Source: an uncultured Spirochaetota bacterium
GTDB lineage: Bacteria; Spirochaetota; Brevinematia; Brevinematales; JAOACQ01
DNA: 64,000 bases
Direction of reading: 5' to 3'
Assembly: GCA_963768055.1 (NCBI GenBank)
Contig: CAVYGN010000002.1
Coordinates: 704,001 to 768,000, forward strand
Shown: positions 7,701-11,392 of the stretch, piece after piece
Layout: every line of letters begins with the position of its first letter
Numbering within the stretch: position 1 is the first letter of the stretch
Program-made: the position numbers and the translations under genes
Notes under the pieces: generated by a model
What the model was told of the DNA's origin: nothing
Database searches by the model: none
The model's input: only the letters and a program-made list of their open reading frames with translations

Positions 7701-7729
7701 ATTATAAAGTTTCAGTTCATTTTTATCAA
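7701..7729 (-). promoter_or_regulatory. sigma70 promoter of smc
   Basis: Minus strand TTGATA (7729-7724), 17 bp, TATAAT (7706-7701). Confidence 0.6.
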
Positions 7730-7753: not shown

Positions 7754-8584
7754 TTAGCAAGCATAATAATAATATGCGAGATGGGGAAACCGGAGCTTTA
7801 TATTTGTAAGGACCTTTTTTTCTATCTGCCTTGTAGCCTCAGCGGATATAGAATATTTACTGCCAAGGTTATTAAGAGTTTGTTTTTTATCCTCTGTCAG
7901 TCCATACCTGTTTTTTATTATATCCCTTTCCCTGTTTGGAAATGAATCGATTGCTGACATAACATCCTCTTTTAACTTTTTCTTTTCAAAAATTGATTCG
8001 GGGTTATAACTGTTGTCCTGCACCATATCTACCAATTCATCATTCGGGTCGAGGCCGCCGCCGCTGTATTGAAATTCTCCATTGCCCCTGTAAAGCATTA
8101 CAATATCGATCACATCCCTTCGCTTTACCTTGAGTTCACTGATTATCTTTGCGATATCCGGCAATTTTTCGTTTTTGGAAAAGTGTTCCCTGATATAATT
8201 CTTTATTTTTTTATTGATCTCATCCTTCCTGTAAGAAATGCTCACACTGAGAGCAGGCTTAATAAAACCCCTCAATATTGACTGCTTTATCCAGAAGGCT
8301 GCGTAGGTTGAAAATTTTACGTCCCGGGCGGGGTTAAATTTGTCCGCCGCCTTAATAAGGCCTAAATTTCCGTTTTGAATGATATCCATTATAGAAGATC
8401 TTCCCTTGCAATATTCCGCTGCAATTTTTACAACCAGCTTAAGATTTGAGTTAATTAATTTTTCAAGCGCAGATCGGTCACCCACTTTTATCTTTAGAGA
8501 AAGTTCTTTTTCCTCATCACGGGTAATACGGGAAAACTTTGAAATACTTTTGATGTATTGCCGGAGTAATGTGATATCTTTCAT
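7754..8584 (-). CDS. rpoS: Alternative sigma70-family factor resembling spirochaetal (Borrelia-type) RpoS
   Basis: Regions 1.2/2/4 (NLKLVVKIA, GNLGLIKAADKF, KFSTYAAFWIKQSI, TRQIEKKVL), no region 1.1. YRKD and DNSYNPE recall Borrelia RpoS. ATG 8584 follows a GGGGG SD. Confidence 0.75.
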   Translation of the reverse strand: MKDITLLRQYIKSISKFSRITRDEEKELSLKIKVGDRSALEKLINSNLKLVVKIAAEYCKGRSSIMDIIQNGNLGLIKAADKFNPARDVKFSTYAAFWIKQSILRGFIKPALSVSISYRKDEINKKIKNYIREHFSKNEKLPDIAKIISELKVKRRDVIDIVMLYRGNGEFQYSGGGLDPNDELVDMVQDNSYNPESIFEKKKLKEDVMSAIDSFPNRERDIIKNRYGLTEDKKQTLNNLGSKYSISAEATRQIEKKVLTNIKLRFPHLAYYYYAC

Positions 8585-8607
8585 AATATCCCCCTGATAA
8601 TTAAATG

Positions 8608-8622
8608 GCAATTATTATGCCA
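8608..8622 (-). promoter_or_regulatory. Putative sigma54 (RpoN) -24/-12 promoter of the rpoS-like gene
   Basis: Minus strand TGGCA-TAATAA-TTGC: exact GG-N10-GC spacing, 24 bp upstream of the ATG. Confidence 0.65.
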
Positions 8623-8789
8623 TAAAAATAACAGGGGAAGGATGATGTTTTTCCGGTACTTAAAACCTTGCCAGTTCAGGATTATCTACTACTGTCAGCC
8701 GATGTATGTTTATTCATACTCGATTAAAATTTGTATCTTGGTTGGGGCCTATCAATTATGATATATTATTATTAATATAGCTGGAGATT

Positions 8790-9308
8790 TTATTTTTCAA
8801 TGTTCTCCAGCCATTCATTGTCTTCCTTTTCCAGTTCTATTGCGATTTGATATGCTATATCGTCTTTTTTATATTTCTTCGACAGATCGAACACAAGTTT
8901 TTTTAATTTATAAATTTCCACATTGGTCAGAAATTTCCCCATTTTTTGACCTTTTGTAAAAGAGTTAAGCAGATCAAGTACTTTGATATTGGCACAGGCG
9001 TCAAGAATATCGCAATATTCCGCGATCTGTTTATAATAATTGTTTTTTATCATCATTATAAAGACTTTATTAATATTAGAGGAAACGAAAGGCGAGATAT
9101 CTTTTACTTCAGCATGCATATATCCCAGGAGGTAAAGAAATTTGTCAATATCCTCTTTTTTTTTATATTCGCTAATTATCCTGTCGACAAGTTTGATGAA
9201 ACTTTTATTCTCCGTGTTAAAATAATGTTTTAATTCTTTAAAATCCTCCGGGGAGACTTCAAAGATACTTCCGGATAGAAGGTTTAATAATTTTGGAGAT
9301 AATTCCAT
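8790..9308 (-). CDS. Hypothetical helical protein
   Basis: 172-aa ORF with GAGG SD, directly downstream of the PAS-SpoIIE gene. Confidence 0.75.
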   Translation of the reverse strand: MELSPKLLNLLSGSIFEVSPEDFKELKHYFNTENKSFIKLVDRIISEYKKKEDIDKFLYLLGYMHAEVKDISPFVSSNINKVFIMMIKNNYYKQIAEYCDILDACANIKVLDLLNSFTKGQKMGKFLTNVEIYKLKKLVFDLSKKYKKDDIAYQIAIELEKEDNEWLENIEK

Positions 9309-9316
9309 TTGATACC

Positions 9317-11392
9317 TCAAAATAATTCAGATAAAACCATCGTAATATCGTCAATCCGAATAGGCCTGTCTCTTCCCGCTTCATATCGTTCTTCCTTCCT
9401 CATCTGAATTGTTTTTTCAATCTCCTTCCGCATTTTTTTTATATCGAGTTCCTTATTACTTTTTAAGAAATTTATCAGATTTTCAGCTTCATATGAAAAG
9501 ACATCGAGAATACCGTCGCTATAAACGAAGATTTTATCCCTTGGAAGTACATTCCCTTCTTCTTCTGTATAAACAAAATCAGCTATTATACCGGCTGGAG
9601 GAGAGTTTTTTATTCCAAAAGTTTTTACGTCGGTGTTCTCCCTCAATATTACCGCATGCGGATGTCCCGCCGAGCTGTATTTAATCTTGTTTTCGTATAA
9701 ATCCAGCATAAGTATAAAGACCGTTACAAACCTGCTTCCTTCCATATTTAAATTAATTATTTTTTTATTAAGCATAACAATGAAATCTGAAAGCTTTATA
9801 TTCCCTTCGTATTCAAGGTTAATTTTAAAATCGGTATAAACATCTTTAACAAGGACGGTCAGCATAGATGCCCCTACTCCATGCCCGGACACATCAGCCA
9901 GAAGAGTTATATAATACTTTCTTTTTTTAATATCAACCTCATCTACATAATAAAAATCGCCCCCAACTTCATCCGACGGCATAAATATAGCCTGAAACTT
10001 GATCTTTTTGCTCCTGGGAAGCTGGGCGGGAATAAGATTTAGGTGCATTAATTTTGCCGCCTGTAAATCTTCAATCAGATTTCTATTCATTTCTTCAAGT
10101 TTTTCCCTGGTTTTCATAATGTATGTGTTGTCAATAAAAAAAATGACAACTCCTTCAAATGCTTTAACGCTTTTAATAGGGAAAAATCTTATATTATACC
10201 ATAAATCACCGAATTTAAGATTAAGGAAAGTAAGTTCTGTTTCACTGTTTTTCAACTCGTTGATTTTGCTCTTGAATTTCTCACCGTATTCCCTGGAAAA
10301 TATCTGGTTTATTTCCATTCCCAGATAAGTTATCCCTGAATCAACAATATTCTTTACCTTTTCGTTTAAAAAAGTGATCCTGTTTTCTTCATTAAGAAGC
10401 AGCATCCCATCACGAGCATTTTCAACAATACTTTTATTGATGACCGCTTGCCGGCGAATGCTTTTTTTCCAGATATCTTCCTTTGTTATATCTTTTACAA
10501 GAATATAATAACCGGTACATACATCTTCAAGGAAGATCCTTTTTATTAATATTTCAGAAACAATTGTCGTTTCATTGTTGTCTTTCATTAAAATTTCGCT
10601 TTTCACCTCTTCGGTTTTTTCCGATATCTCGATAGCTTTGTTAAAAGAGGATTGTGATTCATTTTCAATTAAAACATTAAAATTTTTATTTATTGCCTCA
10701 GCCATTGAAAACCCGAACATTATTTCCGCGCCCTTATTCCAGGTTGTTATATTAAGGTCAACATCTACGGTAATAAAAGCGTAATCCTTAACACTAAGCA
10801 GCATCTGGCTACCAATATCCTGTTCCCTGTTTTTTAAAACATTGATGAGATCATAAATAACTTCATTAAGTTTTTTCGAATTTATTAACAGTGAAATTGC
10901 GGCACGCATATAAGAAAATAAGTTAAAATAACATAAAATAAAAAAAGCGGTTAACTTATTATTACGGATAGTCGGTACCAGAATCGTCATCGGGGGTTTT
11001 CGAAAAATAATCGCATTTATTTTATTTTTAAGGATCTGAAGGGATTTGTAATCGGATTTACTTAAAAAAAATAAATTCACCTCATTTAAAATATCTGTTT
11101 TAATTTTAAAATGCTGTCTTTTGTTTGAAACTGATGATGCCCTTAGAAATAATTTTCCGTTTGAAATTGAAAAAAATAAAGTTAAATCGGATAAAAAAAC
11201 TTTTCTCATCTCATCGCATAAAGCATTAAAAAAATTCTTGGAAAAATCAATCGCTGTTTTTTCAATCCTCAGAAAATTTCTAAACAATCTTTCAATTAAA
11301 AGCTCAAATTTATATGCGTTTTTAATATAATCAACAAAAATTATTACTATTACAAAAAGAAAAAAGATAATTAAATATTGGGAAAAAACCAT
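9317..11392 (-). CDS. Membrane-anchored two-PAS SpoIIE/RsbU-type phosphatase
   Basis: N-terminal TM; PAS (ITTWNKGAEIMFGF; IVENARDGMLLLN); PP2C motifs VGGDFY, ADVSGHGVGAS, SAGHP, YSDGI, DDIT; GAGGAG SD before ATG 11392. Confidence 0.9.
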   Translation of the reverse strand: MVFSQYLIIFFLFVIVIIFVDYIKNAYKFELLIERLFRNFLRIEKTAIDFSKNFFNALCDEMRKVFLSDLTLFFSISNGKLFLRASSVSNKRQHFKIKTDILNEVNLFFLSKSDYKSLQILKNKINAIIFRKPPMTILVPTIRNNKLTAFFILCYFNLFSYMRAAISLLINSKKLNEVIYDLINVLKNREQDIGSQMLLSVKDYAFITVDVDLNITTWNKGAEIMFGFSMAEAINKNFNVLIENESQSSFNKAIEISEKTEEVKSEILMKDNNETTIVSEILIKRIFLEDVCTGYYILVKDITKEDIWKKSIRRQAVINKSIVENARDGMLLLNEENRITFLNEKVKNIVDSGITYLGMEINQIFSREYGEKFKSKINELKNSETELTFLNLKFGDLWYNIRFFPIKSVKAFEGVVIFFIDNTYIMKTREKLEEMNRNLIEDLQAAKLMHLNLIPAQLPRSKKIKFQAIFMPSDEVGGDFYYVDEVDIKKRKYYITLLADVSGHGVGASMLTVLVKDVYTDFKINLEYEGNIKLSDFIVMLNKKIINLNMEGSRFVTVFILMLDLYENKIKYSSAGHPHAVILRENTDVKTFGIKNSPPAGIIADFVYTEEEGNVLPRDKIFVYSDGILDVFSYEAENLINFLKSNKELDIKKMRKEIEKTIQMRKEERYEAGRDRPIRIDDITMVLSELF

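Follow-up and report, generated by a model that had tools for sequence, protein, structure and literature searches.

A predicted sigma-54-dependent gene for a Borrelia RpoS-family sigma factor in a Brevinematales spirochaete

Whether the RpoN-RpoS cascade of Borrelia burgdorferi exists in other spirochaetes is the question raised by a sigma factor gene in the window, the 64-kb stretch of DNA analysed here, which belongs to an uncultured Brevinematales genome (named G000, with contigs C1 and C2). The available text of PMC12472547 calls the cascade unique to Borrelia, PMC3162934 cites, in its available parts, sigma-54 control of sigma-S for Borrelia alone, and the accessible portions of PMC12655853 and PMC4014564 contain nothing on the cascade beyond Borrelia. 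PMC2965109, in the part available, describes Treponema denticola as being without an RpoS homolog. No account of an RpoN-RpoS cascade beyond Borrelia was found in the literature searched, of which subscription papers formed only a small part. Our main reading, for which we estimate a probability of roughly 0.8, is that the gene encodes a member of the sigma family of Borrelia RpoS and is likely transcribed by the sigma-54 polymerase from a promoter motif at 8622-8608. Transcription would require an AAA+ activator, for which the Rrp2 orthologue is the likeliest choice, to be bound at an enhancer predicted from sequence comparisons.

The open reading frame lies on the minus strand (7754..8584), starts with an ATG at 8584, ends with a stop codon at 7754, and encodes 276 residues. 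Pfam matches regions 1.2, 2, and 4 and region 1.1 is absent, bearing out the description in the earlier note of a group-2-like sigma factor without region 1.1. Region 3 gives a Pfam score, a weak one, in 4/32 close homologs; despite this, we consider the region to be present because the AlphaFold2 model (mean pLDDT 86) shows the helices of a sigma factor of this kind, with a sigma3-like block at residues 118 to 167, where sigma3 belongs. The protein therefore has the group-2 sigma-70 architecture (regions 1.2, 2, 3, and 4, without 1.1), and a separate 565-aa RpoD is encoded in the genome. A fold search with the model returned only the generic sigma-70 fold, with low TM-scores due to the domain arrangement. 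The closest named homologs carry Brevinematales labels.

None of the listed NCBIfam models for RpoD, RpoS, and RpoH was matched at its cut-off. The protein resembles E. coli sigma-S in its group-2 architecture and fold, with the RpoS model TIGR02394 and sigma-S chains among the top matches, but it misses the TIGR02394 cut-off (158.8 against 378.7 bits), and no sigma-54 motif is found before E. coli rpoS. The identity to B. burgdorferi RpoS is 37% over 256 residues (139 bits). The earlier note had named four sequence features of Borrelia RpoS, namely, FWIKQS, YRKE, DNSFNPE, and ISSETVRQIEK, all of which are verbatim in the B. burgdorferi protein; FWIKQS is found exactly in the protein described here, but the other three occur as the variants YRKD, DNSYNPE, and ISAEATRQIEK.

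The exactly spaced -24/-12 motif that had been noticed before the gene is indeed present, as TGGCATAATAATTGC at 8622-8608 (8608..8622, minus strand) with the GG-N10-GC spacing. With the -12 C at 8608 as reference point, the predicted transcription start is at about 8596 (8595..8597, minus strand), next to a Shine-Dalgarno-like AGGGGG (8590..8595, minus strand). On its own, TGGCATAATAATTGC is within chance, with 0.17 occurrences expected in the 64 kb and one found in 17/100 window shuffles. Since a single occurrence is not beyond chance, we consider the motif to be real because of its conservation. A strict motif, TGGC-N8-TGC at no more than 140 nt from the start codon, precedes all 19 Brevinematales orthologues (19/19), the conservation that the earlier note had proposed to check. 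It is also found before 41/48 other spirochaete genes of family A, our name for the spirochaetal sigma factor family containing Borrelia RpoS, and in 29/30 Borreliaceae loci, giving 89/97 family-A genes examined. By coded family, the strict motif is present in 22/26, and the remaining four show variants differing at one base. None of 9 spirochaete rpoD genes and none of 83 non-spirochaete sigma genes has it, and control spacers of 7 or 9 gave 0 to 1 matches per set. The motif starts at least 35 nt from the start codon in all 89 family-A genes having it, so the Shine-Dalgarno sequence always lies inside the predicted transcript. Degenerate versions were seen at one Borreliaceae rpoS locus (L149) and at the T. 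denticola family-A gene (L090 and L332, genome G055), the latter having a perfect UAS-A (described below) and a -24 element reading TAGCAC.

Sigma-54 promoters of the NtrC/AtoC type have a palindromic site 85 to 150 bp upstream of the -24/-12 element. The promoter described here shares the upstream palindrome and the -24/-12 element with them, but it controls a gene of the sigma-70 family, so that the arrangement is a relay. Alignment of the upstream regions on the -24 element revealed GTAT-N8-ATAC about 100 bp upstream of the sigma genes. In the window it is the core of the palindrome AGTATG-N6-CATACA (UAS-A, 8703..8720), a single match with 0.03 expected. The exact core is found before 10/19 orthologues and 18/47 other family-A genes, against shuffle means of 0.03 and 0.21, that is, before 28/66 non-Borrelia family-A genes, the two sets spanning 4 and 11 family labels, respectively. 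It precedes none of the 29 Borreliaceae genes and none of 38 family-B genes, which belong to a second spirochaetal sigma family described below. Because the enhancer consensus strings were initially derived from some of these sequences themselves, their weight rests on the counts across sets. In a de novo count of G/C-containing dyads, UAS-A ranks first in two disjoint sets, the Brevinematales outside family f1 and the other spirochaetes, and it is tied for first in family f1. UAS-A-like sites are found at the family-A genes of T. denticola and S. thermophila, and a search for the perfect UAS-A in the B. burgdorferi genome (G166) gave 0 matches, the reversed control pattern giving 3 sites.

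An independent locus, the lipid A synthesis gene lpxC (G000:C2:1074262-1075266; comparison loci L362 to L381), supports UAS-A. A sigma-54 motif precedes lpxC in 20/24 loci, comprising 20/20 Brevinematales loci and 0/4 loci of family f7, and a UAS-A-like site with at most one mismatch is found in 13/20 Brevinematales loci and lies at -85 to -88 in 11 of these. The counts of the analysis leave aside a truncated lpxC locus (L386) and locus L078, which duplicates L147. UAS-A is thus likely to be an enhancer for a sigma-54 activator, and lipid A synthesis is likely under sigma-54 control.

The proteins needed for such a promoter are encoded in the genome. The rpoN gene, whose presence had been named as a check, is intact (C2:75117-76463), without stops, with a TIGR02395 score over the cut-off and three Pfam domains. 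Its presence does not discriminate between readings because rpoN was found in 144/147 spirochaete genomes searched. One Borreliaceae genome has stops inside rpoN (G134:C1:472400-472828), through a frameshift or a sequence error. G000 has seven strong sigma-54 activator-domain genes, five of them with GAFTGA. The Rrp2-type activator looked for is among them (C2:404901-406262), being the genome's best match to Borrelia Rrp2 (48% identical) and composed of a receiver, a GAFTGA-containing domain, and an HTH. In a quick tree of 53 rows, it forms a clade (SH-aLRT 99) with the proteins of Borrelia, T. denticola, and S. thermophila, and the proteins of this clade have a conserved GRKTL-type helix. Rrp2-clade genes also occur in genomes where the family-A search found none. 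The Hk2 kinase gene adjoins rrp2 in six loci outside Brevinematia, and no kinase match was obtained beside rrp2 in G000 or at any of the loci tested from families f1, f2, and f5. With regard to the BosR requirement of the Borrelia cascade, two Fur-family genes are present in G000, and no Fur match was obtained in the T. denticola genome G055.

By elimination, we lean towards Rrp2 as the protein predicted to bind UAS-A. The chief alternative keeps the sigma-54 promoter and the enhancer but assigns UAS-A to another activator, such as an NtrX-like, a GAF-containing, or a receiver-less protein. The Brevinematales share four activator lineages, and the complete genome G014 has exactly those four. 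A search for autoregulatory UAS-A or UAS-B sites before rrp2 and activator genes found none, with 1 weak match in 17 rrp2 genes, and no specific site is known for Rrp2 in Borrelia (PMC1976401 and PMC3037356, in the parts available, the latter stating that specific Rrp2 binding was not demonstrated). The NtrX-like lineage is common to some Spirochaetia too. Among the shared lineages, however, only the Rrp2 clade was shown to have members in both T. denticola and S. thermophila, which have UAS-A-like sites at their family-A genes. Two further T. denticola activators, which were not rows of the tree, have no clear G000 orthologue by BLAST. An activator other than Rrp2 is therefore the less likely choice, although a serious one.

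A second palindrome, TATCA-N4-TGATA (UAS-C, 8750..8763), is likely another enhancer and is found at 6/19 orthologues. Five of the nine intergenic copies in G000 sit 85 to 140 bp before a sigma-54 motif, preceding the sigma gene, a TonB-receptor gene (C1:384498), its neighbour (C1:381325), the gene at C2:80948, and an activator operon. This operon (G000:C2:1323783-1326896) is composed of a small gene, a kinase gene, and a gene for a sigma-54 response regulator (C2:1325559-1326896), so that the presumed UAS-C activator is of the two-component type and its own operon is preceded by a sigma-54 motif and TATCA-N4-TGATA, suggesting that the operon is likely autoregulated. The orthologous regulator regions with a sigma-54 motif have UAS-C in 7/8 cases, 1.8 to 2.8 kb upstream of the regulator; 3/11 regions are without the motif. 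All six genomes with UAS-C at the sigma gene have the activator, and none of the seven activator-less genomes has UAS-C; six further genomes have the activator, with no UAS-C in the 250 nt examined. We slightly favour the reading that UAS-C serves this local two-component activator in this lineage. The three palindromes UAS-A, UAS-B, and UAS-C are predicted sites, none of them matched here to a tested binding site.

A different account would attribute most expression of the gene to a sigma-70 promoter or to read-through of the operon upstream, the sigma-54 site being minor or repressive. The upstream genes are indeed co-directional, and the immediate neighbour, a hypothetical gene of 176 aa (8790..9320, minus strand), adjoins the sigma gene in 16/19 orthologue loci; its product belongs to no Pfam or NCBIfam family, and its Atlas matches are unnamed or weak. 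Further putative promoters upstream are also mentioned for the Borrelia rpoS region in the available text of PMC1976401. We nevertheless regard this account as improbable, since the conserved palindromes at enhancer distance imply activation, the one sigma-70-like site found between the two genes extends over the start codon, so that its transcript would lack the Shine-Dalgarno sequence, and the neighbour varies across the phylum whereas the motif persists.

Equally improbable, in our view, is that the resemblance to Borrelia RpoS is superficial, arising from a separate duplication or from fast-evolving rows drawn together, with the sigma-54 promoter gained independently. The identity to Borrelia RpoS is indeed only slightly above that of the genome's other group-2 sigma factor (33%, 134 bits), the Borrelia branch is long, and sigma-54 motifs occur in family B as well. 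The phylogeny points the other way. The short group-2 sigma genes compared came from related genomes, a sample across the phylum, and one family of two genera; they are the best query matches and not a census, and related genomes are non-independent samples. Exact look-up identified row L167 as B. burgdorferi RpoS and named further rows as T. denticola, S. thermophila, Brachyspira, and Brevinema proteins. The scan of named genomes, with at least 80 loci among the matches listed, mostly RpoD, supplied 76 negative controls and 4 named family-A genes; of 146 proteins newly listed by a profile search against cluster representatives, 103 were RpoD-like, and a plasmid tblastn search for named Borrelia RpoS returned distant outgroups only.

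A first quick tree of 146 rows defined two spirochaetal sigma families, A and B, and a mixture-model tree of 77 rows confirmed both. Our protein and Borrelia RpoS fall together with those of T. denticola and S. thermophila in family A (37 rows), which a branch with bootstrap 91 and SH-aLRT 99 separates from the other rows, the bootstrap value being below the star level of the tool and the branching within the family provisional. Family B (17 rows, 98/93) contains the other group-2 sigma factor of G000 (C1:778642). AU tests on 41 rows rejected the union of Borrelia RpoS with family B (p 1e-5) and with E. coli RpoS (p 1e-4). RpoH, which stood on the family-A side of the quick tree with a long branch, was placed outside by the mixture-model tree.

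The families also differ at diagnostic residues in regions 3.0 and 4.2. An RK pair at Borrelia positions 121 and 122 is found in 37/43 family-A rows, in place of which 29/35 family-B rows have NR. In the protein described here, R119 and K120 of Y118-R119-K120 match Borrelia R121 and K122 of region 3.0, the residues that PMC6719511, in its available part, proposes for promoter selectivity. In the region-4.2 helix, family-A proteins carry SPETV or SAEAT where those of family B carry TKERI or SKERI. Each Brevinematales genome has one family-A match, and so has each Borreliaceae genome. The flgJ-rpoS synteny of Borrelia was not found, as the upstream gene is hypothetical and a flgJ-like match lies at C2:530 kb. 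No family-A-level match was obtained in the searched f6, f7, f15, f20, and f36 genomes or in genome G120. A few weak, divergent candidates from other genomes are treated as unclassified or as loosely assigned. A look-up of 10 divergent family-A proteins yielded almost no taxonomy, one cluster member having both a Clostridia and a Spirochaetia label and one being labelled only "bacterium". The restriction of family A to spirochaetes is unproven because these labels are mixed or nearly absent. The grouping with Borrelia RpoS expected in the earlier note thus stands at the level of one spirochaetal family (91/99), but not as a particular sister relationship to Borrelia, and the protein is a co-member of a phylum-wide family and a probable orthologue of Borrelia RpoS. 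PMC6719511, in the part available, groups Borrelia RpoS broadly with proteobacterial homologs and treats the origin of RpoS as disputed.

That the inverted repeat ATGGCA-N7-TGCCAT, present at 8623-8605 as the earlier note had described, acts as a repressor site or as a weak terminator of the upstream operon is very improbable; the 6-bp repeat is perfect and was flagged by the terminator scan, but the scan yields 1.1 such terminators per shuffle, the sigma-54 consensus is near-palindromic in itself, the base after TGC varies freely, and the mirrored TGCCA is kept in only 2/19 orthologues and in 0/41 and 0/29 of the other motif-bearing family-A genes, leaving a repressor role unsupported.

In the favoured reading, transcription by the sigma-54 polymerase from 8622-8608, a closed sigma-54 holoenzyme would rest on the -24/-12 motif, phosphorylated Rrp2 would bind UAS-A about 100 bp upstream, and, with looping of the DNA, the complex would be opened. 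In this lineage, a two-component activator acting through UAS-C would provide a second input. A short-leader mRNA from about 8596 would yield the sigma factor, which, with its region-3.0 RK pair and altered region-4.2 helix, would redirect the polymerase to extended -10 promoters. Borrelia would have retained the promoter and Rrp2 and lost the enhancer.

The comparison with the B. burgdorferi cascade (BB0763, RpoN, BB0771) shows the same sigma family, a 48% identical Rrp2-clade activator, the conserved RK pair, and the same -24/-12 motif before the gene, which reads TGGCACAGTTTTTGC at -78 in the B. burgdorferi locus. The differences lie mainly in the control region and in the gene complement. 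The locus described here has a predicted enhancer, whereas none was found in 29/29 Borreliaceae loci, and a second, lineage-specific one. The motif is at -38, against -62 to -84 in Borrelia, giving a shorter leader. Neither the flgJ synteny nor an Hk2 gene adjoining rrp2 is found, and seven activator-domain genes are present, compared with one in Borrelia, together with a second sigma-54-linked group-2 sigma gene.

In the available text of PMC1976401, the introduction of which describes enhancer-dependent sigma-54 promoters, purified Rrp2 showed no binding to the 238 bp preceding Borrelia rpoS, and activation did not depend on an enhancer, which fits the missing UAS-A of the Borreliaceae genes. 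GTAT-N8-ATAC would accordingly be a candidate for the Rrp2 site that the Borrelia rpoS upstream region failed to yield in that study, as far as its available text goes, and the candidate site makes an old question directly testable. The conserved family-A motif, rpoN, and the Rrp2-clade gene support the earlier suggestion of an old spirochaetal circuit, made in view of amino acid and pantothenate biosynthesis genes, of which the window does contain PanC, ArgJ, two amino-acid-kinase-family genes, and one TPP-enzyme gene. The sigma-54-to-sigma circuit, described as unique to Borrelia, probably arose early among the spirochaetes, and its enhancer-equipped variant is apparently ancestral to much of the phylum. 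Borrelia RpoS is thereby placed in a widespread spirochaetal family, nearly all genes of which have the sigma-54 motif, giving a testable origin for this protein.

As to the output of the sigma factor, our best guess, a tentative one, is cell-envelope remodelling because UAS-A and UAS-C are also found before lpxC and TonB-receptor genes. Genes of G000 with a sigma-54 motif in front include lpxC, exbB/tolQ, two TonB-receptor-like genes, amtB, and hsp20.

The paralogous family-B gene (G000:C1:778505-779532, L016) has a sigma-54 motif at -47 and an enhancer-like palindrome at -90. Among family-B genes, the strict motif is found in 16/24 Brevinematia genes and 13/38 other genes, that of G000 included. 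The palindrome, TGYRTCA-N3-TGAYRCA, occurs before 19/38 family-B genes against 0/95 family-A genes, and it is kept in 17/17 Brevinematales loci at no more than 3 mismatches. Its sole other intergenic copy in G000 (at most one mismatch) lies, together with a sigma-54 motif, before hsp20 (C2:685559-686169), which suggests that hsp20 and the family-B sigma factor form a parallel stress relay. In f7 genomes (L044 to L048), which are relatives at class level and for which no family-A match was obtained, 17-bp TGTRTA-N5-TATACA-like sites precede the family-B gene, as if a UAS-A-type input had moved to the paralogue. More speculatively, and about as tentatively as for the envelope output, we suggest that ancestral spirochaetes may have had two parallel sigma-54-to-sigma-70 relays with enhancers of their own, GTAT-N8-ATAC serving the Borrelia RpoS family and lpxC and TGYRTCA-N3-TGAYRCA serving the sister sigma family and hsp20, that GTAT-N8-ATAC may be the Rrp2 site, and that the enhancer-independent, BosR-assisted virulence switch of Borrelia may be a remnant of an envelope circuit of free-living spirochaetes.

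Downstream of the sigma gene lies smc (SMC_N), preceded by a near-consensus sigma-70 promoter motif, TTGATA-17-TATAAT (7701..7729, minus strand), with 11/12 consensus positions matched, which suggests that smc is transcribed separately. Elsewhere in G000, two strong intergenic sigma-54 motifs (C1:1397120 and C2:1230802), with no called gene of at least 100 aa within 300 bp, may drive small RNAs or short proteins.
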